64,000 bases of DNA. Source: an uncultured cyanobacterium (lineage in GTDB: Bacteria; Cyanobacteriota; Cyanobacteriia; Cyanobacteriales; CAWUOF01). The stretch lies in assembly GCA_963744145.1 (NCBI GenBank), contig CAVUSO010000001.1, positions 7,392,001-7,456,000 on the forward strand, given 5' to 3'. The position numbers were made by a program, and so were the translations under genes. Below the pieces are notes generated by a model that had not been told where the DNA came from, made no database searches, and worked only from the letters and a program-made list of their open reading frames with translations. Below are positions 1,846-64,000 of the stretch, piece after piece; positions within the stretch are counted from its first letter, which is position 1, and the number at the start of each line of letters is the position of its first letter.

Positions 1846-2284
1846 AATCCGGTTCAGTTACTTGTAGGGGCAAAGCATTTCGGCGTATAAATGATTGTTT
1901 AAGCGTTTACCCTGAGTTTACCCTGAGCGTAGTCGAAGCTTGCCCTGAGCGTAGTCGAAGGGGGCGTAGTCGAAGGGAAGAATAATATTACCGAAATGCG
2001 AGAGCCCTCACATTTATGCAACCAACCGATCAACTACATATAGAAAAATCCAATTTAGTTAAAACAAAAATGTTACTTCGGCGATTCCTCCAGAAAAATA
2101 ACCTCACTCATCCGTAATATATAGGTCAATATAGTTCAGCGTAGAAGAAGGGTGAAGCATTCGGGTCTAATGCTACTCCCCTTCGACTACGCCCTTCGGC
2201 TACGCTCAGGGTAAACTCAGGGTAAAACTTCAGTGTTTAATTGTCGCCCGAATGCTTCACCCCTACGCCTAACTGAACCGGATT
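1846..2284. repeat. REP-doublet/MITE-like composite: B hairpin (GTAG at 1864) and inverted A hairpin (CTAC at 2263-2266), bounded by 15-bp inverted repeats
   Basis: AATCCGGTTCAGTTA (1846-1860) and TAACTGAACCGGATT (2270-2284) are exact reverse complements; the hairpins match the 58-62 kb array units; nested 24-nt inserts at 1906-1977 and 2179-2226. Confidence 0.85.
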
Positions 2285-2723: not shown

Positions 2724-5360
2724 TTGAAAACCTGTATGACCACTACCCAGGAGCGGATTATCCCAACGGATCTGCGGAACGAGATGTCTCGATCTTACTT
2801 AGAATACGCCATGAGCGTGATCGTGGGACGGGCATTACCAGATGCGAGGGATGGTCTCAAACCAGTGCATCGTCGTATCCTTTACGCGATGCACGAATTG
2901 GGCCTTACTCCGGATCGTCCCTTTCGTAAATGCGCTCGTGTGGTGGGGGAAGTGCTGGGTAAATATCACCCCCACGGTGATACAGCAGTATACGACGCAT
3001 TAGTACGGATGGCACAGGATTTTTCCATGCGCGATCCCCTAATTGATGGACACGGTAACTTCGGTTCCGTTGACAATGATCCACCAGCAGCGATGCGATA
3101 TACGGAGTGTCGATTGCGATCGCTGACCAGCAACGCGCTCCTCCAAGATATTGAATCAGAAACAGTAGATTTTGGCGATAACTTTGATGGTTCTCAGCAA
3201 GAGCCCCTACTTTTACCAGCCCGAATTCCCCAATTGTTGGTGAATGGTTCATCCGGAATTGCAGTGGGGATGGCAACTAATATTCCACCACATAATTTAG
3301 GAGAGCTAATTGATGGTTTAGTAGCATTGATTCACAATCCAGAAATTACAGATCTTCAGTTGATGCAATATATCCCAGGTCCAGATTTTCCGACGGGAGG
3401 ACAAATTTTGGGAACAGCGAGTATCCGCGAAGCTTATACCACTGGACGTGGTTCAATTACGATGCGGGGAGTAGCTGAGATTGAAACAATTGAACATCGA
3501 GGAAGACCAGATCGAGAAGCAATTATTATTACTCAATTGCCCTATCAAACTAATAAAGCGGCATTGATTGAAAAAATTGCAGAATTTGTGAATGATAAAA
3601 AGTTAGAAGGGATTGCGGATATTCGCGATGAAAGCGATCGGGATGGGATGCGAATAGTAATCGAACTCAAACGCGATGCTTATCCCAGGGTAGTATTGAA
3701 CAACCTGTATAAACAAACTCCTTTACAAGCTAATTTTGGAGCCAATATGTTGGCTCTAGTAAATAGCGAACCCCAACTGCTTACCATTAAACAGTTTCTT
3801 TCTGTTTTCCTAGAGTTCCGGATTGATTGCGTCAGACGTTGAACTACCTATGAACTGCGGAAAGCTCAGGAAAGAGATCATTTACTCCAAGGTTTATTAA
3901 CCGCACTAGCTAATCTTGATGCAATTGTTGCTTTAATTCGTCATGCTGCTGATACACCAACAGCGAAAGCAGAATTGATGGAAACTTACGCTTTATCGGA
4001 AGCACAAGCAGACGCAATTTTACAAATGCAATTGCGGCGTTTAACAGCACTAGAAGCGGAGAAAATTAGCGCCGAACATGAAGAGTTGCAAGTAAAAATA
4101 GCAGATTTACAGGATATTTTGGCTAACATTAGCCGAATTCTGGAAATAATTGAAACCGAAATTCAAATCCTCAAAACTACTCATGCAACTCCACGTCGGA
4201 CAATTATTCAACACGCAGAAGGAGATCTAGAAGATACCGATTTAATTGCTAATGAAAAAGCCTTGATTCTGTTAACAGAACAAGGATATATTAAACGGAT
4301 GCCCGTTAATACCTTTGAAGCCCAAAATCGGGGTACTCGTGGTAAAGCAGCAAACCGCATGAAGGATGATGATGGAGTCGAACACTTTTTAACTTGCTGT
4401 GATCACGATCCAGTATTATTCTTTAGCGATCGCGGTGTAGTATATTGTGTGAAAGCTTATCAACTTCCGACCGGATCACGGACAGCTCGTGGTACTCCGA
4501 TCGTGCAAATGTTACCAATTCCCCGAGATGAAAAAATCACCTCCATGTTATCAGTCGCAGAATTTAGTGATGATGAATATTTGGTGATGCTGACTAAAGG
4601 TGGTTTTATTAAGAAAACTGCACTCTCGGCTTTTAGTAATATTCGTGCTAATGGATTAATCGCGATTTCCTTAGAAGAAGGTGATCAATTACGCTGGGTC
4701 AGACGAGCTAGGGAAGAAGATAGTGTCATCATTGGTTCACGTCAAGGTATGGCAATTCATTTTAAAGCCGATCGGGATCAATTACGTCCTCTCGGACGTT
4801 CTACCCGAGGGGTAAAATCGATGAAGTTACGTCCAGATGACGAACTAATTAGCATGGATATTCTCCCTGGTTCAGTAGTTGCTAGTTTAGGACAAGTAGA
4901 GTCGGATGAGGTAGAAATTGAAGAGGAAGATTTAGAAGTGATTACTACTGAATCAGACCCTACGGTTTTAGAATCAGAAACAACTACGGTTTTAGAATCA
5001 GAAATAACCACTCATCAAGGTCCCTGGGTGTTAGTAATTACTACTGGTGGTTATGGAAAACGAGTTCCAGTTAACCAATTCCGTCTCCAAAATCGTGCTG
5101 GTAAAGGAATTATTGCGACTAAGTTTAAATCTCGACGGGTTAATGATCAGTTAGCAGCACTACGAGTCGTGAATGAAGGTGACGAATTGATGATTGTTAC
5201 CAGTCGCGGGATTATTATTCGTCAGTCCGTTGATGCAATTTCCCATCAATCTCGAGCTGCAACTGGTGTCCGAGTTCAACGTTTAGATGAAGATGATGCG
5301 ATCGCTGCTGTTGCATTAGTACCTCCTAGTAATGGTGAAGAGGAAGAAGCTACAGAGTAA
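2724..5360 (+). CDS. gyrA: DNA gyrase subunit A, with one in-frame TGA at 3840-3842
   Basis: YHPHGD, PAAMRY and QNRGTRGK (GyrA box-like) motifs. The ORFs 2724-3842 and 3975-5360 share a frame, and the intervening sequence reads [19 protein letters not shown]. The stop aligns to a conserved Arg (CGA to TGA). Confidence 0.93.
4960..5004 (+). repeat. 24-nt-period in-frame duplication in the GyrA C-terminal acidic insert ([16 protein letters not shown])
   Basis: CTACGGTTTTAGAATCAGAAA occurs twice, 24 nt apart. Confidence 0.85.
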
Positions 5361-16485: not shown

Positions 16486-16890
16486 ATGAAAAGAATCATG
16501 TTTGTGTGTAAAAAAAATTCTGCTCGTTCCCAAATAGCAGAAGGCTTTGCTAAAGTAATTGGTCAAGGACAAATCGAAGTAACTAGCTCTGGATTAGAAG
16601 CTAGTCAAGTAAATCCTGGTGCAATTGATACGATGAAAGAAATTGGAATTGATATTAGTGATCAAACCTCCAAAGCTCTTAACAATTTTCATCCAGAAGA
16701 TTTTGATGTGGTGATTTCTTTGTGTGGATGCGGTGTGAATTTACCACCAGAATGGGTAGTACGGGAGGTATTTGAAGACTGGCAATTAGATGATCCCGCA
16801 GAGCAACCAGAAATATTTCCGAAAATCCGTGATGAAATTAAGAATCGGGTAACTCAATTGATAGCTTCAATAGACTTCTTGCAAAAATAA
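16486..16890 (+). CDS. arsC: Arsenate reductase (cyanobacterial LMW-PTP-fold type)
   Basis: VCKKNSARSQ and SLCGCG motifs; the last codons and the stop come from the family C repeat. Confidence 0.9.
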   Translation: MKRIMFVCKKNSARSQIAEGFAKVIGQGQIEVTSSGLEASQVNPGAIDTMKEIGIDISDQTSKALNNFHPEDFDVVISLCGCGVNLPPEWVVREVFEDWQLDDPAEQPEIFPKIRDEIKNRVTQLIASIDFLQK

Positions 16891-17080
16891 CTAAGACAGT
16901 CAAGATGACTGTCCCACAAATGCAAAAATAACTAAGACAGTCAAGATGACTGTCCCACAAATGCAAAAATAACTAAGACAGTCAAGATGACTGTCCCACA
17001 AAAGTCATTTTTCCTAGTGGAACGGATATCTTGTCTGTTCTATAAATTACCCAAAAGGACTTTTACTTGCTTGTCTAATT
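16868..17080 (+). repeat. Family C repeat with an internal 41-bp unit triplicated (16880-17002)
   Basis: TGCAAAAATAACTAAGACAGTCAAGATGACTGTCCCACAAA x3, starting at 16880, 16921 and 16962; ends CTTGTCTAAT as in the 15175 copy. Confidence 0.9.
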
Positions 17081-17915: not shown

Positions 17916-18698
17916 TCACTCTAGTAAATCAGGATCAATTCCTAATTCACGCAACTTAGCAGCCAATCTTTCAGCTTTTTGACGTTCTTGTTCAGCTTTT
18001 TGACGTTCTTGTTCAGCTTTTTGACGTTCTTGTTCAGCTTGTTCTGCACTCCACAGCAACAGATTACCTGACTTATTCCACCAGCGCAACCAATTCATCC
18101 TTTGTTGCAACCTTTCCCCATGCCAAATTCCCAGATATAGTTCCAGTTCTGGAATCCACACCTGACCCTGAGCATTTACTGACTGGACAACGTATTTTCC
18201 ATATTCTAAATACCGCACTGCCAGAATAGTTTTGTAGGGGTCATAAGTGACGTATGTAGGTACTTGGAGAATCTGTTCATAGAAGTACATTTTGCCGTAG
18301 GGAGAACTTGCTCTCATTGATGATTCTCCTCCATCTTTGTGTGAGAGAAACTCCATTACAACTGCCACTCTTGCACCATGAAGATTAGGGGTATAACTAC
18401 GGCGAATGATCCCTGGTGCTAAAGGATGCACTTGAGGTACATAAAACCAATCTGGAGCTTTGATGACAAGTTCTTCATCGATAGTTGCAACTAGCCCGAA
18501 ATTAGAGCCAATTAGCATTTCTGACTTGATATATCCTGCGGCTCCCAGGGCATCAGTAAGAGACGCCGCCAAAGGAGGTTGTTGAATATTTTCCACGGGA
18601 TCGTCGGGTAATATGAAGTTATCTGGTAGAGGTTCCCAGTTGATGTTTGGTTTGACTTTAATATTCGGGGCTTCGAGAAGCATTGTATTAACCCTCAA
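17916..18698 (-). CDS. Uma2 family endonuclease-fold protein (tandem paralog) with (QERQKAE)x3 tail
   Basis: Same motifs as the neighbouring gene; 21-nt repeat TTCAGCTTTTTGACGTTCTTG x3 at 17970-18032. Confidence 0.88.
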   Translation of the reverse strand: MRVNTMLLEAPNIKVKPNINWEPLPDNFILPDDPVENIQQPPLAASLTDALGAAGYIKSEMLIGSNFGLVATIDEELVIKAPDWFYVPQVHPLAPGIIRRSYTPNLHGARVAVVMEFLSHKDGGESSMRASSPYGKMYFYEQILQVPTYVTYDPYKTILAVRYLEYGKYVVQSVNAQGQVWIPELELYLGIWHGERLQQRMNWLRWWNKSGNLLLWSAEQAEQERQKAEQERQKAEQERQKAERLAAKLRELGIDPDLLE

Positions 18699-54596: not shown

Positions 54597-56693
54597 ATGC
54601 CAAAGCAAATTATTATCGCCGAGCAGCATCGTATCGCTGCTGTTTTTTCCGAAGATCAGATCCATGAGCTAATTGTTTCCAAAGGTAGTCACCAAGTCAG
54701 TGATATCTATCTGGGCGTAGTTGAGAATGTATTGCCCGGGATTGATGCAGCGTTTGTAAATATAGGTGATGCAGAACGGAACGGATTTATTCATGTCACT
54801 GACTTGGGACCATTGCGGCTCAAGCGGATATCAGGTGCGATTACAGAACTGTTAGCACCACAGCAAAAAGTCTTAGTCCAAGTGATGAAAGAACCGACCG
54901 GGACCAAAGGACCGCGGCTCACAGGTAATATCACCTTACCAGGTCGCTATTTAGTGTTAATGCCCTTTGGAAGGGGAGTAAATCTTTCCCGACGGATTAA
55001 AAGTGAAACTGAACGTAATCGTTTGCGGGCTTTAGCAATTTTAATCAAACCAGCCGGAATGGGTCTGTTAGTCCGCACCGAAGCAGAAGGAATGACCGAA
55101 GAAACGGTCATGGAAGATTTAGAAGTTTTGCAAAAACAATGGGAGGCAATTCAACGCGAAGCTAGTTCGACCCGTGCCCCAGCTCTATTGAATCGTGATG
55201 ATGATTTTATTCAGCGAGTGCTGCGGGATATGTACAGTGCTGATGTGAATCGGATTGTGGTCGATTCCCATAATGGTTTAAAACGAGTCAAACAACACTT
55301 ACTGAATTGGAGTGCTGGAAAAGCAACTCAGGGAGTGCTAGTTGACCATCATCGCGATCGCATACCAGTTCTGGAATATTTCCGGGTTAATGCAGCAATT
55401 CGCGAAGCCCTCAAACCAAGAGTTGATCTTCCCTCTGGTGGTTATATCATCATCGAACCCACGGAAGCCCTGACCGTCATCGATGTTAACTCTGGCTCAT
55501 TTACCCGTTCAGCAACAGCCCGGGAAACCGTTCTTTGGACTAATTGTGAAGCAGCCACAGAAATTGCCCGACAATTATGTTTACGAAATATTGCCGGTGT
55601 AATTATTGTCGATTTTATCGACATGGATAAACGTCAAGACCAATTACAGGTACTTGAACACTTCAACAAAGCTCTGAAAACTGACAAAGCGAGACCACAA
55701 ATTGCCCAACTATCGGAACTAGGTTTAGTCGAACTAACCCGGAAACGTCAGGGTAAAAATATTTATGAATTATTTGGTCGCGTTTGTCCCAATTGCGGTG
55801 GGTTAGGACACTTGGTGAGATTACCTGGTGAAGCTGACCTGGAAGAAGAAGAAATTGAACGTCCTGGTACAGTTGTAGTCCAGCGTGAATATCGCACCCC
55901 AGAAATTTCTAGTCGTGAAGGGTACGAGCCAGAAATTGGTAGCGAGAGCCAAGATCTTGATCTGACTAATCATCCCAGTTACCAAGAACTAAGGGGTGAA
56001 GGTCGTCGTCATCGTCGTCGGATTGGAGAAGCTCCGCTCAGAGATGATGAACTTAGACCAAGTGAACCACGTTTACCTGCGGCTTATTTGACTCCCAATC
56101 ATACTACTGGGCCGATTTTAAGTCCAGACCCCTTGGAACGCTCTAATATTCCTCTCTATGGGAATTCAGAAGTGTTTCCGCGTACCATCGTCAAAGATTC
56201 TCGTCAGATTATTGATCGGAGTAAACCAGCTAAAAGAGAGATTCCCAAGCCCATTTCGGAGCGTCCCGAAGTTGTTTCGGTGGAAATGAGTCCTCTTGAA
56301 CAAGATGTTTATGCTTGGATGGGAGTATCTCCTCTGGTGCGGGTCGAACGGGAAATTAAAAATCCTAAATCCGCGATCGTCTCAGTCCGTTTACCTGGAG
56401 AACCAGATACTACACCTGAACCGGATTTTCGGAAACCTCAAATTCCTGAACCCAGCGATCGTGAGTCTGTTCCTGTGTTTGAAGAGTCTGATGCTGAATC
56501 AGATGAACCTGAACAATTTGAACCAACTCCTCCTGTGTTGGAGGAAGTAAGTAATCAAGAGACTTATGGTTCCTCTAGTTCAGAAGATTATAGTTCCCTA
56601 TCCCTAACTGAAAATTCAGAATCGGGTGAAACGGATAGTGGAATTGCTACTCGTCGTCGTCGTCGTCGTTCCTCAGCTCTTTTTGAAGGATAG
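54597..56693 (+). CDS. rne: Ribonuclease E
   Basis: S1 domain, IDVNSG, DFIDM and CPNC motifs; acidic/Arg-rich tail ending RRRRRRSS. Confidence 0.95.
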   Translation: MPKQIIIAEQHRIAAVFSEDQIHELIVSKGSHQVSDIYLGVVENVLPGIDAAFVNIGDAERNGFIHVTDLGPLRLKRISGAITELLAPQQKVLVQVMKEPTGTKGPRLTGNITLPGRYLVLMPFGRGVNLSRRIKSETERNRLRALAILIKPAGMGLLVRTEAEGMTEETVMEDLEVLQKQWEAIQREASSTRAPALLNRDDDFIQRVLRDMYSADVNRIVVDSHNGLKRVKQHLLNWSAGKATQGVLVDHHRDRIPVLEYFRVNAAIREALKPRVDLPSGGYIIIEPTEALTVIDVNSGSFTRSATARETVLWTNCEAATEIARQLCLRNIAGVIIVDFIDMDKRQDQLQVLEHFNKALKTDKARPQIAQLSELGLVELTRKRQGKNIYELFGRVCPNCGGLGHLVRLPGEADLEEEEIERPGTVVVQREYRTPEISSREGYEPEIGSESQDLDLTNHPSYQELRGEGRRHRRRIGEAPLRDDELRPSEPRLPAAYLTPNHTTGPILSPDPLERSNIPLYGNSEVFPRTIVKDSRQIIDRSKPAKREIPKPISERPEVVSVEMSPLEQDVYAWMGVSPLVRVEREIKNPKSAIVSVRLPGEPDTTPEPDFRKPQIPEPSDRESVPVFEESDAESDEPEQFEPTPPVLEEVSNQETYGSSSSEDYSSLSLTENSESGETDSGIATRRRRRRSSALFEG

Positions 56694-56742
56694 GGATGGA
56701 GTTACAACACAGAAGGGGCGCTCATTGCAATATGCCCGTACT

Positions 56743-57366
56743 ATGGATAATGGGGGAATTGTCATAACACCTGAAAACCGAGCTTCTGTGTTGTATGCTG
56801 GTGTAGATGAGGTGGGACGGGGAGCGTTATTCGGTCCGGTAGTCGCAGCAGCGGTAATTTTCCCAGATCAGGTTCTGGCTGAGTTAGCCGCGTCTGGAGT
56901 AAAAGATAGTAAGCAACTTTCTGCGGCTCAAAGATTGCGACTATCGGGTACAATCCACAAGTTGGCTTTAGATTGTCAAATTGGTGTGGCTTCGGTACGG
57001 GAAATCGATCGATTGAATATTTTACAAGCCACTTTACTGGCGATGAAAAGGGCGATCGGTAAGCTGAAAGTTAAACCTCAGTTGTGTTTGATTGATGGTA
57101 ATCAGGCTATTCCTGGTTTAGGGATTCCCCAACAAACTATAGTCAAAGGCGATCGCGAAAATTTAGCGATCGCTGCGGCTAGTATTGTTGCTAAGGTATG
57201 GCGTGATGATTTGATTGTGCGTTTGGCGGTTAAATATCCTGAATATGACTTGACAAATAATAAAGGTTATGGTAGTGCTAAACATATATTAGCTTTACAA
57301 CTTTATGGTGCTTCGGCACAACATCGTCTTTCCTTTCGCCCTTGTCGTGTCAGTCATGAAATTTAA
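56743..57366 (+). CDS. rnhB: Ribonuclease HII
   Basis: GVDEVGRG, DSKQL, DGN, IAAASIVAK and HRLSF motifs; likely ATG at 56743. Confidence 0.93.
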   Translation: MDNGGIVITPENRASVLYAGVDEVGRGALFGPVVAAAVIFPDQVLAELAASGVKDSKQLSAAQRLRLSGTIHKLALDCQIGVASVREIDRLNILQATLLAMKRAIGKLKVKPQLCLIDGNQAIPGLGIPQQTIVKGDRENLAIAAASIVAKVWRDDLIVRLAVKYPEYDLTNNKGYGSAKHILALQLYGASAQHRLSFRPCRVSHEI

Positions 57367-57988: not shown

Positions 57989-58395
57989 ATCAAATCAATC
58001 CTAATGAATATTATAGTCCTAAATCAGCAACCCAGATAAGCGATCGCTTGCCGATCAATAGGGTGTAGGGGCGAAGCATTCGGGCGATAATTTACCGCTT
58101 AAACCAGCAATATTAGATCCGAATGCTTCGCCCTTCTTCTGCGCCGAGCTCCCCAAAAATTCTGAACTGAATGGATTGTAATATCTAGTTGATCTGTTGG
58201 CTACATAGATGGCAGGGCAAAGCATTTCGGTAATATTATTTTTCGTTTCAGCAATTATTTATTCGCCGAAATGCTTTGCCCCTACAAGGAACTGAACTGG
58301 ATTGGTATTTAATCACCGATCGGTTGCCGATCAATGGGGTGTAGGGGCGAAGCATTCGGGCGATCATTTATCACTTAAACCAGTTAATATTATAT

Positions 58396-60639
58396 CCCAC
58401 ATTCCGCACCCTGAACTGTCACAATTCGTAATTACTGAAATAAACCTCTATCAAAGCTGAAATTTTGGCCCACTATCGTCAAAAAAGAGGTTTTTAAACC
58501 TTGATGGTCAGGTCATCAATCTCTAGTTTATTAATAATTATTAGCAATAAGTAGAAAATGAGGATTTCGGCCCGTTTTTTCAATAAATTTTGGTGTTGAC
58601 TAGCTCTCTTAACTCAGTTTTGTTAGTTAATAACTGAACAATCTCTAGTTAAGATAGGTTAATTCTTAGCTCTTAATTAAATTCAAGAACTCATTCAAGC
58701 TAAATATATTTATGCTATATTAGCAAGAGGATTAAGTGATAAATTTATAGTAGCGCCGACAATCTTCTGGTAGCAGGGTCAGGATAAATTCACGTTCATT
58801 ACTCCAATTAGATACTTGTTGTTGTTGTTGAAATGTGACCAGGTGAATTGCTTGAAAGCATTGAAATATCCATTTAGCTGTTGGACGGTCTGTTGCTTTC
58901 CCTAACTGATTTTTTATGGTTGATTTTGCTGCTGATAAAGCGGCTCGTATTTGTCTTTGTGCTAGGGTATAAACCAGTAAACCTAGCCCCATAATTGCTG
59001 CTAATGATTCGATGCGTTCGGGACTTTTCAGATAAACACTATCTGCAAAAAATGTGGGATCTTTAAGAAAACCAAATCCTCTTTCACAGGATTGCTGTGC
59101 CTTATACTCAGTCAGCATTGCCTCATTACTAATTTCGCTTTCTGCTAAAACGTTCGTCGCAATTATGAATCTACCTGCACTGTTAGTTTCTTGTTCAATT
59201 TGGCTTTTATCCTCGGTAAAACTGCCGAGAATTTGATAACACTTTTTTTGACTTTTATCTAATTTATCTGGTCTGATTTCCCTGACTTCTTTTGGTTCAA
59301 TTTGATGATATTTAAAGGATTTCGATAGGTGAGTTAATGCCTTGACTGCATCAGCTTTACAGGCAAATCTATCTTGGGATAATTTTCCTAATTCGCTGTT
59401 CAGTTTGGTGGCGGATTTACTAATTTTCTGTGATAATTTCCGTAAATCTGATTCTCTTCTTTCTTGACTTTCCACAACTAGCCATCTTTGCTTTATCCCA
59501 CCATAAGTCTGCTCTTTTGCCGCCCATGAATATCCAACTAATTTGCTTTTAGTAAATTCTGAATCTGGCAAATTTGCTACTAATTCTTGGGCTAATTTTA
59601 TCTTTAACGGTACTCGGCTTAACCACTTAATTTCCGACATTAATTTGAGATTATCTTCTGTATATAAGGCACAATCAGCTACGATTAAACTATCTACTTT
59701 TATTTGATTTTTATAATCAATTGCTATCTTCGCAAAGCATGATGAGTCGGCTTGATTTCCTGACGCTGCTTTTAAAAATATTGGGATATCTCCATCCCCG
59801 GTACATACTAATTCTATTAAAAATTGTTTTAAATCAGGTCTATGGTCACGGGAATAACCGTAATTTATTTTGATTGGTTGTCGCGATTTTATTTGGGGCT
59901 CTCCTTGGTCTGACAATTCTGGCTGACTAAATATTATCTCTGGTAATTCTTGATGATATTCCCCATGTACGTGAATTGACGATGAGTCTAGATGGGATGT
60001 ATTTAAAGATATATCAAACTTTTTAACTGCATTTAAAGTAATTGCTAAAAATATTGTATCCAGTCCTTTACTATATAGTTTATCCATCACTCTTCCCAGT
60101 TTATCGTCATTTAAATATTCGGGCTTTACCCCGGCTCCTATTAAATGTTCACAGGGAATTGATTCAAAAAATTTCGGAAACATATATAATGGTTTAGAAA
60201 TAAATCCTAACCCATTGATAATCATTGCTTTAACTGCTTGTCCAGCAGTAACTTTTTCTCCCGATTCTATCCCGATTAAATTATTAATTATTTCTACTAT
60301 TCCAATCGTATCTACTATTCCTGCTACTAACCCCAGATGGTCGATATTCTGAATTTTAATATCGTTTATGTCTACCATAGTTACCCAATTTAACGAGCCA
60401 ATTTTTGGTTCAATTATCGCATTTTTAGGCTCGATTGCAATTAATTTTTTTACTCTTTCATTTTCCGGACTTCTGCTACGGTTAATCTCTCAATAACCCA
60501 GGGCCTCTTTCTGCTCATAAATCTAGTTTAATAAAATTTATTCTCATTAATCTCATTTATGATCTTTTTGAGCCAACTTTCTTCGTCCCCAATTTTTACC
60601 CTTTTATTAAGATGTGCCAGTGAGGGTGCGGAATGTGGG
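58396..60639 (-). mobile_element. IS1634-family insertion sequence (2244 bp)
   Basis: 17-bp TIRs CCCACATTCCGCACCCT / AGGGTGCGGAATGTGGG; 6-bp TSD TTATAT (58390-58395 and 60640-60645); removing it restores array unit 2. Confidence 0.95.
58732..60378 (-). CDS. IS1634-family transposase
   Basis: IDHLGLVAG, HLDSSS, YGYSRDHRPDLKQ, VADCALY and YKAQQSCERGFGFLK motifs. Confidence 0.95.
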   Translation of the reverse strand: MVDINDIKIQNIDHLGLVAGIVDTIGIVEIINNLIGIESGEKVTAGQAVKAMIINGLGFISKPLYMFPKFFESIPCEHLIGAGVKPEYLNDDKLGRVMDKLYSKGLDTIFLAITLNAVKKFDISLNTSHLDSSSIHVHGEYHQELPEIIFSQPELSDQGEPQIKSRQPIKINYGYSRDHRPDLKQFLIELVCTGDGDIPIFLKAASGNQADSSCFAKIAIDYKNQIKVDSLIVADCALYTEDNLKLMSEIKWLSRVPLKIKLAQELVANLPDSEFTKSKLVGYSWAAKEQTYGGIKQRWLVVESQERRESDLRKLSQKISKSATKLNSELGKLSQDRFACKADAVKALTHLSKSFKYHQIEPKEVREIRPDKLDKSQKKCYQILGSFTEDKSQIEQETNSAGRFIIATNVLAESEISNEAMLTEYKAQQSCERGFGFLKDPTFFADSVYLKSPERIESLAAIMGLGLLVYTLAQRQIRAALSAAKSTIKNQLGKATDRPTAKWIFQCFQAIHLVTFQQQQQVSNWSNEREFILTLLPEDCRRYYKFIT

Positions 60640-62220
60640 TTATATCCGAATGCTTCGCCCTTTTTCTGCGCCGAGCTCCCCAAAAATTCTGAACTGAATG
60701 GATTGTAATATCTAGTTGATCTGTTGGCTACATAGATGGCAGGGCAAAGCATTTCGGTAATATTATTCTTCGTTTCAGCAATTATTTATGCGCCGAAATG
60801 CTTTGCCCCTACGAGGAACTGAACTGGATTGGTATTTAATCAGCGATCGCTTACCGATCAATGGGGTGTAGGGGCGAAGCATTCGGGCGATAATTGAACA
60901 ATCAAACCAGCAATATTAGATCCGAATGCTTCGCCCTTCTTCTGCGCCAGCTCCCCAAAAATTCTGAACTGAATGGATTGTAATATCTAGTTGATCTGTT
61001 GGCTACATAGATGGCAGGGCAAAGCATTTCGGTAATATTATCCTTCGCTTCAGCAATTATTTATGCGCCGAAATGCTTTGCCCCTACGAGGAACTGAACT
61101 GGATTGGTATTTAATCAGCGATCGGTTGCCGATCAATGGGGTGTAGGGGCGAAGCATTCGGGCGATAATTGAACAATCAAACCAGCAATATTAGATCCGA
61201 ATGCTTCGCCCTTCTTCTGCGCCAGCTCCCCAAAAATTCTGAACTGAATGGATTGTAATATCTAGTTGATCTGTTGGCTACATAGATGGCAGGGCAAAGC
61301 ATTTCGGTAATATTATCCTTCGCTTCAGCAATCATTGACGCGCCGAAATGCTTTGCCCCTACGAGGAACTGAACTGGATTGGTATTTAATCAGCGATCGG
61401 TTGCCGATCAATAGGGTGTAGGGGCGAAGCATTCGGGCGATAATTGAACAATCAAACTTTACCCTGAGCGTAGTCGAAGGGCAGCAATATTAGATCCGAA
61501 TGCTTCGCCCTTCTTCTGCGCCGAGCTCCCCAAAAATTCTGAACTGAATGGATTGTAATATCTAGTTGATCTGTTGGCTACATAGATGGCAGGGCAAAGC
61601 ATTTCGGTAATATTATTCTTCCCTTCGACTACGCTCAGGGTAAACGCTTCAGCAATTATTTATTCGCCGAAATGCTTTGCCCCTACGAGGAACTGAACTG
61701 GATTGATATTTAATCAGCGATCGCTAGCAGATCAATCGGGTGTAGGGGCGAAGCATTCGGGCGATAATTTACCGCTTCAACCAGTAATATTAGATCCGAA
61801 TGCTTCGCCCTTCTTCTGCGCCGAAATCCCCAAAAAATTCTTAACTGAATGGATTGTAATATCTAGTTGATCTGTTGGTTGCATAGATGGTGAGGGCAAA
61901 GCATTTCGGTAATATTATCCTTCGCTTTAGCAATTATTTATGCGCCGAAATGCTTTGCCCCTACAAGGAACTGAACTGGATTGGTATTTAATCAGCGATC
62001 GCTTGCCGATCAATCGGATGTAGGGGCGAAGCATTCGGGCGACAATTGAACAATCAAACTTTACCCTGAGCGTAGTCGAAGGGCAGCAATATTATATCCG
62101 AATGCTTCGCCCTTCTTCTGTGCCGAAATCCCCAAAAATATTATAGTTTAAGCAACTAATGAAATGCTGCAAACCTCATTCCTACGTCATCCAATTTTTC
62201 TGAAAAATATTGTTGATCTT

Positions 62221-63640
62221 GGTTCTACCGAACTATCTATGTAAAAATATTAGTTATTAGCTCGTAAAACTCCCAATTAAATAATTAATTTATATCTGAA
62301 AAATTACTGACGTGATTGACTTTGGGCGATTTTTATGTTTAAATTGGATTAGAATAATTAAGTACATCTAAGTAAAAATTGACAGCTATGGCATCTTCTT
62401 CTCAACTTCATCTAATGACTTCATTGCTGAATAGTCAAGAATTTAAAGTAGTAGATTATCAATTTCAAGAAGGGATCGGGATATTTTTACGACTAGAAAA
62501 ACGAGAATTAAAAGTTAAATGTCCTTGTTGTGAAAGCCTCACAGATAAATTACATCAAAATCATTGGTATGTAGTAAGAGATTTGGCTTTTGGTGAACAA
62601 CAAATATATTTAAAAGTCAATCGTCGTCAAATGAGATGTGACCAATGTGGCCACAAATTTAGTGAAGAGTTAAATTTAGTGAAGAAGAAAAGAAATTATA
62701 CTGAAAGATTAAGAAATAAAATTATTAAGGAAGTTTTGTCAAGTGACATAAAAAACGTGGCGATACGGTACGGATTTAGCGAGCAAGAAGTAGAGACAAT
62801 GTTAAAAGAATTAGGCGCAGAATTAATGAAAAAAAAGCCCGAAAATTTACAGCGGTTAGGAATCGATGAAATTGCCGTAGTAAAAGGGCAAAAAAATTAT
62901 TATGTAGTGTTAATAGATCTTGACCAAGGAATTGTATTAGGAATTATCGAAAACCGCAAAAAAGCCGAGATAGAAAAATACCTAGAAGCTTGGGGAGAAG
63001 AGGTTTTGGGGCAAATCCAAGAAGTAAGTATTGACCTCTGGCAAATGTATAAAAATATCGCCGAAAAATTGATACCTCAAGCAGAAGTAATCGCCGATAG
63101 ATTTCATGTAATGAAGCAAGTACAGGATGAACTAGATCAAGAAAGAAGGAAAACGAAAAGAACCGCAGAGCCATTGAAAAATAACCAAAAAAAAGAGCAA
63201 ATATTAGGCGGATTAACTAAGAGTAAATATGTCTTACTTAAAAATGAGAAAGATTTAAATGATGATGAATCTCAACGACTTAAATTAGTTAAAAAAGTTG
63301 CTCCAAAATTAGGAAAAATGCATGAGCTCAAAGAAAAATTTAGAAATATTTATGAGTCCAGTAAAGATTGGGTAGAAGGAATATTTAATTTCGCTGATTG
63401 GTTAAAAGAAGCTCAAGATTATTTCCCTCATAGTTGTGGGACAATTATCCGATGGATTGGAGAAATTATTGCCTATTTCGATCACCGAACTACTCAAGGA
63501 GTAGTCGAAGGAATTAATAATAAGTTAAAATTGATTAAAAGGCGTGGCTATGGCTTTAGGAATTTTGATAATTTTCAGCTCAGAAGTATTTTAACTTGGC
63601 ATTTTGCTAGTTAGTTTTACATAGATAGTTCGGTAGAACC
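62221..63640 (+). mobile_element. ISL3-family insertion sequence (1420 bp)
   Basis: 26-bp perfect TIRs GGTTCTACCGAACTATCTATGTAAAA; 8-bp TSD TTGATCTT (62213-62220 and 63641-63648). Confidence 0.95.
62388..63614 (+). CDS. ISL3-family transposase
   Basis: Zinc finger CPCC/CDQC; LGIDE, SIDL, DRFHV and EGINNKLKLIKRRGYGFRNF motifs. Confidence 0.95.
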   Translation: MASSSQLHLMTSLLNSQEFKVVDYQFQEGIGIFLRLEKRELKVKCPCCESLTDKLHQNHWYVVRDLAFGEQQIYLKVNRRQMRCDQCGHKFSEELNLVKKKRNYTERLRNKIIKEVLSSDIKNVAIRYGFSEQEVETMLKELGAELMKKKPENLQRLGIDEIAVVKGQKNYYVVLIDLDQGIVLGIIENRKKAEIEKYLEAWGEEVLGQIQEVSIDLWQMYKNIAEKLIPQAEVIADRFHVMKQVQDELDQERRKTKRTAEPLKNNQKKEQILGGLTKSKYVLLKNEKDLNDDESQRLKLVKKVAPKLGKMHELKEKFRNIYESSKDWVEGIFNFADWLKEAQDYFPHSCGTIIRWIGEIIAYFDHRTTQGVVEGINNKLKLIKRRGYGFRNFDNFQLRSILTWHFAS

Positions 63641-63664: not shown

Positions 63665-64000
63665 TTAGAGTTTAGAGAACAGAAAAGAAGACCCCGATGC
63701 TCCACTCTCAAGGTTGCACCCCCGTCCATTCACCCCCGCAGCCGCACAACACGGGAAGTGACCTAGCGGAGCAGCGCTATTAAAAGTGAGGTCAGAGTAG
63801 TTCAACCAGTTTCCTCCTTTTCTCCAGCCGACTTGATCTGCTAGTTTAACATAAGTATCCCAATCATAACTATCTAGCTTACCACCCAATTTGAGCCAGA
63901 TTTTCTTCTGGACTGAAAACCCAAATTTGTCATTAGAATACTTTAACCACAACTGGTCAATGAGCCGCAGTTCATTTTTCGGAAAATTACGACAGTTATT
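63665..64000 (-). CDS. GUN4-domain protein, C-terminal part (runs off the window end)
   Basis: FPKNELRLIDQLWLKYSNDKFGFSVQKKIW...VGWR...APLGHFP. Confidence 0.88.
   Translation of the reverse strand, partial: NNCRNFPKNELRLIDQLWLKYSNDKFGFSVQKKIWLKLGGKLDSYDWDTYVKLADQVGWRKGGNWLNYSDLTFNSAAPLGHFPCCAAAGVNGRGCNLESGASGSSFLFSKL

Follow-up and report, generated by a model that had tools for sequence, protein, structure and literature searches.

How does a tandem array of long hairpins come to lie between two converging genes of a cyanobacterium, and which enzyme spread its hairpins? The locus belongs to an uncultured cyanobacterium (GCA_963744145.1, contig CAVUSO010000001.1, positions 7,392,001–7,456,000 of the forward strand; this stretch of 64,000 nt is called the window hereafter), for which an initial annotation had described a BIME-like tandem array of REP hairpins. 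GTAG feet, inverted A–B pairs and tandem units were indeed found, with seven A and six B hairpins located in the window. What had been overlooked is that the unit is a damaged IS4 MITE. From sequence comparison, we consider it about 75% probable that the REP hairpins spread inside Nezha-type IS4 MITEs, were amplified by unequal recombination and afterwards received insertions of IS1634 and of 24-nt elements. The parts of the array are:

58040..62139, no strand: tandem array of 6.5 units, each a damaged A+B MITE (249 bp) plus a 27-bp spacer
58040..58047, no strand: HIP1 octamer at the left array boundary; further perfect copies at 60843, 61717 and 61995
58056..58064, plus: left IS4-type TIR stub (the initial 9 nt remain, and the 10 bp that would follow before the GTAG foot are deleted); further stubs at 58332, 60859, 61134, 61409, 61733 and 62011
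58065..58133, plus: REP hairpin A of unit 1 with GTAG foot, 15-bp stem and 35-nt unstructured loop
58162..58178, minus: internal degenerate TIR behind the tail of A; others end at 60705, 60980, 61255, 61555 and 61856
58215..58285, minus: REP hairpin B of unit 1 with GTAG foot on the minus strand, 16-bp stem and 35-nt loop
58288..58304, minus: right TIR of the A+B MITE; copies at 60815–60831, 61090–61106, 61365–61381, 61689–61705 and 61967–61983
58305..58331, no strand: 27-bp spacer between MITE copies, containing HIP1 or a variant
58341..60660, plus: hairpin A of unit 2, its loop interrupted by IS1634
60742..60812, minus: hairpin B of unit 2
60868..61087, no strand: unit 3 hairpins (A 60868–60936, B 61017–61087)
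61143..61362, no strand: unit 4 hairpins (A 61143–61211, B 61292–61362)
61418..61686, no strand: unit 5 hairpins (A 61418–61510, B 61592–61686), each with a 24-nt insert
61742..61964, no strand: unit 6 hairpins (A 61742–61810, B 61894–61964); the closest relative is a unit at C1:2.92 Mb
62020..62112, plus: hairpin A of the terminal half unit, with a 24-nt insert at 62060–62083
62140..62220, no strand: right flank, common to four other loci at the 3' ends of GUN4-like sequences

Measured after removal of the IS and one target copy, the six full units span 276, 277, 275, 275, 324 and 278 bp and are followed by a half unit, which reproduces the sizes given before and adds one for the IS-split unit 2 (277 bp); Tandem Repeats Finder returns a period of 275 with a score of 2138. 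Stems, 35-nt loops, GTAG/CTAC feet and the homology of A and B are as first described, and so are the two A-loop alleles (units 1/6 versus 3/4/5/7), unit 2 carrying a third of 36 nt. A HIP1 octamer or a variant had been assigned to every unit and does lie in the spacer, but perfect HIP1 is present in only 4 of the 7 units. Genome-wide, HIP1 density is 1.0 per kb, and the units have one ancestral spacer in common. The motif AACTGAAYKGATTG, reported behind both hairpins, matches only the copy behind A, the one behind B having an additional base; the two copies are remnants of IS4 TIRs in the same orientation.

Genome-wide, 426 A/B hairpins in 202 clusters were collected, with arms at most two mismatches from the window's stems as criterion. 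GTAG stands on exactly one side in 418 of them, and stem pairs 1–3 are G–C in nearly all 333 distinct copies, a conservation that is inflated because the hairpins were collected by arm similarity to these stems. The family is extragenic (2/426 inside ORFs of 150 aa or more), and inverted A–B pairs account for 162 of 224 adjacent hairpin pairs; as REPs and inverted REPs with conserved linkers and tandem copies, they form BIME/REPIN clusters. The window array is not unique: array-type units are present at 11 loci examined, and 3 of the 202 clusters hold 13–14 hairpins, equal to its 13. A plasmid search gave one weak match of 73 nt, and the hairpin family is abundant in several other genomes of the order.

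In agreement with the initial annotation, no RAYT is encoded in the window. A hairpin-flanked RAYT, which it had proposed to look for, is present elsewhere in the genome (C1:4373019–4373594, minus strand) as a 191-aa ORF of subclass-2.4 type with the motifs NHLH, WQ and YIQENP, which are variants of the consensus NH[IFV]H, WQ and YIxNNP; the PF01797 genome search gave 17 matches and missed it, and it was recovered by tblastn. Seven A/B hairpins lie upstream, starting about 40 nt away, and none within 2 kb downstream. The same hairpins flank homologous RAYT genes in three of five genomes tested, and in two of these a REP is inserted in frame. The RAYT motifs fit subclass 2.4, and the long REPs of this subclass are alike in GTAG foot, three basal G–C pairs and a length of 69–71 nt (Quentin et al., 2018; PMC6006769). 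The Anabaena cylindrica AFZ56567.1 rows of their Table S1 list a matching family of 69–71 nt, two REPs of which share the GTAG foot and the outer 12–14 stem pairs with hairpin A. With the foot and basal pairs, a high extragenic copy number, REPs within 1 kb of the tnpA_REP gene and a match to a catalogued REP, A and B are shown by their sequence features to be long REP hairpins of TnpA_REP subclass 2.4, and the RAYT looks cognate. Novelty of the large hairpin is not supported, because a described cyanobacterial family has this architecture. Unlike the subclass 2.4 REPs in the material of that study considered here, many copies are enclosed by IS4 TIRs, B is a 16-bp stem variant, and 81 of 426 loops exceed the usual length, in almost every case through a 24-nt element.

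A motif left unexplained at first, AACTGAA..GATTG, is the TIR of an IS4 element, of which 1472-bp copies reside in the genome (seven copies, 99.86–100% identity). The 276-bp unit aligns end to end with free-standing A+B MITEs, minus 10 bp of the left TIR and plus the 27-bp spacer; 217 of 263 columns are identical to the MITE at C1:6272790–6273051, and 208–213 to three others. The stubs match the IS4 TIR at 6–8 of 9 bases, and the 10-bp gap is seen in the alignment to the free MITEs. Counting a target duplication where at least 8 of 10 flank bases match, we found 10-bp duplications at 52 of 101 TIR pairs genome-wide (control 0/101), enclosing A/B hairpins in 27 cases, other or damaged GTAG hairpins in 14, IS in 7 and no REP in 4. 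Among the MITE forms with 10-bp duplications, single-A measures about 134 bp, single-B about 150 bp and the A+B form about 260 bp, and perfect duplications surround larger arrangements, e.g., four hairpins of the window's unit type (C1:5245938–5246522) or eight hairpins (C1:7592824–7593855).

Moreover, a TIR stands 2–3 nt from the foot in 138 of 418 hairpins and lies inside or within 120 bp of 143 of the 202 clusters, versus 4.9 under random placement. These data show, at the level of TIRs and flanks, that in this lineage A/B hairpins lie inside Nezha-type MITEs ending in resident IS4 TIRs; much of the hairpin dispersal bears IS4 target duplications and not a RAYT signature. This suggests that the hairpins of this genome owe most of their spread to an unrelated cut-and-paste transposase that took them along as passengers: the IS4 transposase would have mobilized the MITEs, and many REP copies would thereby have spread as cargo. 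It counts against this cargo model that TIR pairs with a preserved target duplication enclose no more than 42 of the 426 hairpins, and that 59 of 202 clusters, the RAYT-adjacent array among them, have no nearby TIR.

The window array derives from a MITE and is not itself an intact one. It shows no intact outer TIR pair with duplication, its left TIR being a 9-nt stub and its right end being free of a TIR, and it is for lack of such a pair probably no longer mobile as a whole. To explain its regularity, we propose that an A+B MITE ended up 27 bp upstream of an A already short of 10 bp in its left TIR, and that crossovers between the two direct A copies then multiplied the 276-bp interval. This would account for a unit number of n+0.5, for TIRs that all face one way and for the constant spacer. 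Against it, a search for the founding locus, where the first ten bases of the spacer should be duplicated, gave none; a lone stub-A accompanied by the array's spacer piece and right flank is present at C1:7458 kb. Unit 6 differs from the unit at 2.92 Mb in 3 alignment columns, in a comparison of units with a recognizable B end. Recombination and duplication appear to have carried unit blocks from one locus to another, and IS4 transposition to have done so at least once.

The repetition could in principle be an assembly expansion of a short repeat, and none of the four public DNA contig sets compared spans the array. However, each of the six full units is at least 3 alignment columns away from its nearest neighbor, individual units carry their own inserts and an IS with target duplication, and the chromosome is a single 7.63-Mb contig, so we give this explanation hardly any credence.

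Could the HUH enzyme instead be the main mover and amplifier, nicking near the GTAG foot and joining strands in a rolling or repeated fashion, with the TIRs mostly carried along and IS4 having moved only a minority of copies? An intact RAYT ORF does adjoin a TIR-free A/B array. The 107 distinct upstream contexts of A hairpins with a MITE-type tail include 27 that lack a TIR altogether and 30 in which a stub abuts the foot, most of these 30 belonging to the window array's own family. A TIR–foot junction of this kind was not found in 298 of 301 genomes of the order, yet the hairpin family is abundant in several genomes. Breakpoints close to the foot are, however, in part a consequence of how copies were selected. 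Paired TIRs with 10-bp duplications are signatures of DDE transposition and are frequent here. The RAYT itself carries Thr in the YYEH-type motif where five homologues have His, and its score of 59 bits falls short of the family cut-off of 80. The region of this motif has been assigned to GTAG recognition (Quentin et al., 2018; PMC6006769). On balance, spread driven mainly by RAYT appears improbable.

Slightly better odds, though still low ones, can be given to a division of labor, in which RAYT would load REPs into IS4 end-shells 2 nt from the TIR and keep nicking the GTAG foot, and the IS4 transposase would carry singles, pairs and arrays; RAYT nicking would then trim left TIRs and seed tandem arrays. 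Capture of REPs into Nezha elements would on this view have recurred in cyanobacteria, where 6 of 251 genomes have nine or more sites with a TIR no further than 30 nt from a GTAG foot, at differing spacings. TIR-anchored A copies vary by 0.4% in the foot, 7% in the 5' stem, 19% in the loop and 12% in the TIR, the values for B being 4, 3, 16 and 15%. TIR and loop less conserved than foot and stem favor a role of RAYT, and this difference, which passive cargo leaves unexplained, counts against the latter.

The initial annotation also considered transcription into structured RNA. In this case, the array would be maintained between converging genes because it works as an RNA or regulates 3' ends (as stabilizer, terminator or RNase III substrate), and clusters are indeed enriched in convergent gaps (70/179 versus 396/2303 background gaps), long ORFs are nearly free of hairpins and the compensatory stem changes reported earlier were borne out, the stems covarying and being fully compensated. 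But convergent enrichment is also expected if insertions survive where they are least harmful, and the rarity of G–T pairs (4 cells versus 89 compensated cells) fits two-stranded DNA symmetry better than RNA. In the loops, no conserved covarying fold beyond the inverted repeat was found: shuffled sequences fold just as well (mean z 0.1 to 0.4 as RNA), and the loop columns with the strongest covariation are mostly non-complementary. Rfam gave 13 matches up to E 5 with none at the gathering score, promoter and terminator counts are at chance level, and the locus is disrupted by three kinds of insertion. We therefore regard selection for an RNA function as very unlikely; if the two converging neighbor genes are affected at their 3' ends at all, this would be a by-product.

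The loops had further been taken as diversifying, and a cassette with CRISPR-like spacers or retroelement-driven variation can be envisaged. Constant stems with variable loops, and 75 distinct sequences among 104 copies of the 35-nt A loop, would suit this idea, but the loops can be aligned as alleles of a clear consensus in which all four bases vary, identical alleles turn up in arrays far apart, and the adjacent units 3 and 4 have one and the same A loop. Directed diversification is consequently scarcely believable. A CRISPR array was rejected, as the loops are related and shared between loci rather than unrelated spacers. In five genomes, loop lengths between 12-bp outer stems are nearly constant (378 matches of 33–45 nt, 1 shorter, 10 longer), which may reflect descent, because loops share motifs across genera.

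The suggestion that smaller elements land in the hairpin loops held up, as IS1634 and 24-nt inserts are seen there. The insertions are:

58396..60639, minus: IS1634-family element, 2244 bp, 17-bp TIRs, 6-bp target duplication (58390–58395 / 60640–60645)
58732–60378, minus: IS1634 transposase (NF033559, 407 bits)
61458..61481, plus: 24-nt mini-element in loop A5, self-nesting, without target duplication
61621..61644, minus: 24-nt mini-element in loop B5
62221..63640, plus: ISL3-family element with 8-bp target duplication, between the array and the end of the GUN4 gene

IS1634 and the 24-nt mini-elements are shown to have inserted after the array had formed. IS1634 as a REP-specific element was rejected, with only 2 of 11 full-length copies in A hairpins. 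Single 24-nt inserts (n = 43) lie 28–31 nt from the 3' stem end in one orientation throughout, and the element is also found in stems, in itself and elsewhere, although the insertion-site classifier mislabeled some loop sites; shared descent or gene conversion could look alike in this uniform geometry. Its core is present in 67 of 251 genomes from many families of the order. The SDR repeats of Nostocaceae, reportedly described by Elhai et al. in 2008, are said to be 21–27 nt long, to lack target duplications and to nest in themselves and other repeats. By this description, the 24-nt insert resembles SDR in size, absence of target duplication and self-nesting; a literature search for the 24-nt motif and SDR names gave nothing relevant.

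How does the array relate to known systems? Like BIME/REPIN clusters (Bertels and Rainey, 2011; PMC3116915; Corneloup et al., 2021; PMC8266576), it combines inverse REP pairs, fixed linkers and tandem repetition; unlike those described there, its linkers consist for the most part of MITE tails and remains of TIRs, and every REP is in itself a 65–67-bp foldback with a 35-nt open loop. The Nezha MITE of Anabaena/Nostoc measures 130–170 bp, has TIRs common to an IS and 10-bp direct repeats (PMC3184786; PMC6042816), and the MITEs described here share this size class, IS-shared TIRs and 10-bp repeats. In one of 389 genomes (G869), a 138-bp element between the published Nezha direct repeat shares the TIR type, encloses a GTAG hairpin and is probably Nezha, judging from length and direct repeat. 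In contrast to its double-foot hairpin, the cargo here is single-foot A/B hairpins, with an intact resident IS4, and double, multi-hairpin and tandem forms set this genome apart from Nezha as published in those sources. REP dimers of Anabaena variabilis within long palindromes are GTAG repeats likewise enclosed by a second inverted repeat, of different sequence, and the relevant sections name no transposase or target duplication for them (Di Nocera et al., 2013; PMC3733652). The literature searched, which covered few subscription papers, gave no description of REPs as IS4/Nezha MITE cargo; closer ones may stand in the remaining parts of Quentin Table S1, in Quentin Fig. 7 or in Di Nocera Fig. 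1.

All parts of the array belong to known kinds, neither a new enzyme nor a host function being shown, and the array is layered selfish DNA from known components. The spread of REPs is still called poorly understood in the recent literature (Corneloup et al., 2021; PMC8266576). Here, IS4 target duplications around REP singles, pairs and small arrays are shown in one genome, a warning that a high REP copy number near a RAYT is no proof of RAYT-driven spread. With seven near-identical IS4 copies and an intact RAYT gene, this genome is tractable for separating the two routes. Should both enzymes prove to act together, REPs would have been captured repeatedly into Nezha elements in cyanobacteria, and hitch-hiking on DDE transposases would be a general route of REP dissemination.

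The tandem array of double-hairpin units proposed in the initial annotation was borne out: positions 58065-62112 of the window contain 7 A and 6 B hairpins as described, and the unit lengths, once the IS and one target copy are taken out, are 276, 277, 275, 275, 324 and 278 bp, followed by half a unit. Because at least three alignment columns separate every full unit from its nearest neighbour, an assembly expansion is unlikely. The array is enclosed by converging genes, and its surroundings comprise:

57988 (+): end of a 227-aa ORF
58040-62139: array of 6.5 units
in loop A2 (hairpin A of unit 2): IS1634, 2244 bp, with a 6-bp duplication
62221-63640: ISL3-family element flanked by an 8-bp target duplication, between the array and the GUN4-like gene end
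63665 (-): end of a GUN4-like gene

The ISL3-family element is inserted in a flank common to several GUN4-like gene ends; five such 3' ends cluster on the minus strand (window 63665-64000 and C1:7458-7460 kb, C1 being the chromosome contig), and, counted genome-wide, four GUN4-like ends have hairpin A or whole arrays downstream. At 54597-57366 an RNase E/G gene precedes one for RNase HII, upstream of the array's left neighbour, with no link to the array shown. Short tandem repeats with periods of 41, 21, 24 and 15 occur at 16880-17002, 17970-18040, 4950-5008 and 1949-1977, respectively.

The motif following each hairpin is the terminal inverted repeat (TIR) of a 1472-bp element that encodes an IS4-family transposase of 461 aa; its seven copies (99.86-100% identity) have 10-bp target duplications. 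TIR-like sites number 419 on the chromosome against about 41 expected (strand imbalance genome-wide, 152 plus vs 230 minus). A right end lies within 3.5 kb of 101 left ends, and 52 of these pairs match at 8 or more of 10 flank bases, compared with none in an offset control chosen likewise. The 52 enclose A/B hairpins in 27 entries (among which two pairs have a common right end), other or damaged GTAG hairpins in 14 and no REP in 4, while the remaining 7 are the IS4-family element itself; miniature transposons (MITEs) with a single A, a single B or A+B are all present with target duplications. A TIR stands 2-3 nt ahead of the GTAG foot in 138 of 418 oriented hairpins, and within 120 bp of or inside 143 of 202 hairpin clusters (4.9 at random). 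Unit 1 (276 bp: TIR stub 9, A 69, tail 28, internal TIR 17, B tail 36, B 71, 2, right TIR 17, spacer 27) matches four free A+B MITEs along its full length at 208-217 identical of 262-264 columns, lacking exactly 10 bp of their left TIR. Judged by these alignments, the array is built of damaged Nezha-type IS4 MITEs, and IS4 footprints are present on many REP copies of this genome. Our literature searches returned no paper reporting either; REP dimers inside long palindromes are described for A. variabilis by Di Nocera 2013 (PMC3733652). One full IS4 copy (C1:2049240-2050711) has inserted where the TIR meets the foot of a B hairpin, and MITEs with IS4 ends carry non-GTAG cargo at C1:2911961-2912133, 6520169-6520340 and 262650-262749.

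For Nezha, PMC6042816 describes a 138-bp copy and states the 10-bp repeat that borders it. This repeat was searched in 389 genomes of one family, with two matches; one of them is an element of 138 bp that has TIRs of this type at its two ends, encloses a double-foot GTAG hairpin and is probably Nezha. Among 301 genomes of the order, 3 have the exact TIR-foot junction with A/B-type hairpins: this one at 92 places, and two others (G319 and G381) at one place each, with paired TIRs and 10-bp duplications. Six of 251 genomes have at least 9 places with a looser TIR-to-GTAG link, lone matches elsewhere being at control level.

The chromosome holds 426 complete A/B hairpins (255 A, 171 B; B on the plus strand 62 times, on the minus strand 106) and 110 unpaired arms. 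Loops measure 33-37 nt in 345 and more in 81, GTAG stands on exactly one side in 418, and 121 of the 202 clusters are single hairpins. Another short insert breaks many A arms (C1:876817, 1294380, 1530523 and others, also loci L031 and L032), so that 426 understates the family. The REP/BIME reading was right in kind, but not as a novelty, since the family is, by its sequence features, already catalogued: a supplementary table of Quentin et al. 2018 (PMC6006769) lists two Anabaena cylindrica REPs of 71 and 69 nt, which share foot and outer stem with the hairpins here. Of 301 genomes from the phylum, 20 contain the pattern. A RAYT (TnpA_REP) gene preceded by the hairpins, absent from the window, was found elsewhere, together with a second one:

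C1:4373019-4373594 (-): RAYT-like ORF, 191 aa, seven A/B hairpins from about 40 nt upstream of its start
C1:6661747-6662307 (L020:4748-5308): RAYT-like gene, 186 aa, a different long-loop GTAG REP family on both sides

The 191-aa ORF carries the motifs NHLH, WQ and YIQENP, which fit subclass 2.4 in Table 1 of the same paper, is 43-52% identical to five other RAYT-like proteins and matches NF047646 with E 3e-16, yet under the cut-off. RAYT matches occur in four of five other hairpin-rich genomes, the gene being flanked by the A/B family in three; two of these three have the in-frame REP insertion that is a hallmark of the subclass. A third, short GTAG family (about 180 copies, partly double-footed, e.g., L001 1459 and L002 3138) in places flanks or interrupts IS200-type genes.

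Among 333 distinct copies, chosen by stem similarity and with a few inherited changes giving most compensated cells, 89 stem cells are compensated, 4 are G-T and 19 mismatched; in 13 hairpins from four genomes all stem cells pair, 5 of 15 pairs having changed on both sides. The stems are real inverted repeats. Transcription into structured RNA, suggested as a possibility in the initial annotation, gained no support: loops fold no better than shuffles, top covarying loop columns are mostly non-complementary, Rfam gave no match at the gathering score, and promoters and terminators are about as frequent as expected by chance. Clusters are enriched in convergent gaps (70 of 179 vs 396 of 2303 in the background), as is usual for REPs.

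Directed loop diversification likewise found no support. Other elements inserted later: IS1634, of whose 11 full-length copies only 2 lie inside A hairpins, and a 24-nt element. The latter, present in A5, B5 and A7 (hairpins of units 5 and 7), has 223 near matches genome-wide, 80 within complete hairpins; the 43 single inserts in loops all point the same way and keep a distance of 28-31 nt to the 3' stem end. It also inserts into itself, as at window 1949-1977 in a damaged A/B MITE near 1845-2285, 67 of 251 genomes contain its core, and it resembles the SDRs of Elhai et al. (2008).

That RAYT still matters for the spread of the REP copies is hinted at by several observations. TIRs are lacking from 59 of the 202 clusters and from RAYT's own array, MITEs flanked by duplications contain only 42 of the 426 hairpins, and in TIR-anchored copies the loop and the TIR are more variable than the foot and the 5' stem. 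Where an A has a MITE-type tail, there are 107 distinct upstream contexts: the TIR is complete in 37, reduced to its inner part in 13 and to a stub in 30, and absent from 27, a pattern that is, however, partly forced by how copies were selected. Two stub elements outside arrays and one more retain 8-10 of 10 duplicated flank bases, which argues for recurrent TIR trimming. An argument against its current activity is the YYEH-type motif, in which this RAYT, unlike the other five compared, has Thr in place of His.

The array most likely originated when an A+B MITE ended up upstream of an A with a stub TIR, at a distance of 27 bp; crossovers between these A copies, which lie in direct orientation, would then have amplified the interval. 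C1:7458 kb still holds a lone stub-A with the same spacer piece and right flank; this flank, at GUN4-like gene ends, also terminates the arrays at 2.92 and 7.50 Mb. The unit was found at 11 loci examined; for five of six window units the nearest relative is another window unit, and no more than 3 columns separate unit 6 from a unit at 2.92 Mb, consistent with local amplification and exchange between arrays. A HIP1 site forms the left boundary here and at three other loci, which hints at, rather than shows, HIP1-bounded duplication. At the end of two arrays (right flanks C1:2925895 and C1:5943658), a repeat of about 21-24 nt seemingly inserted in HIP1 resembles the HIP1-targeting SDR5 of PMC5861425. 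An intact outer TIR pair is not present around the window's array. Outer TIRs, with perfect duplications, bound a four-hairpin block of this unit type at C1:5245938-5246522 and an eight-hairpin block at C1:7592824-7593855; IS4 can therefore, it appears, move whole arrays.
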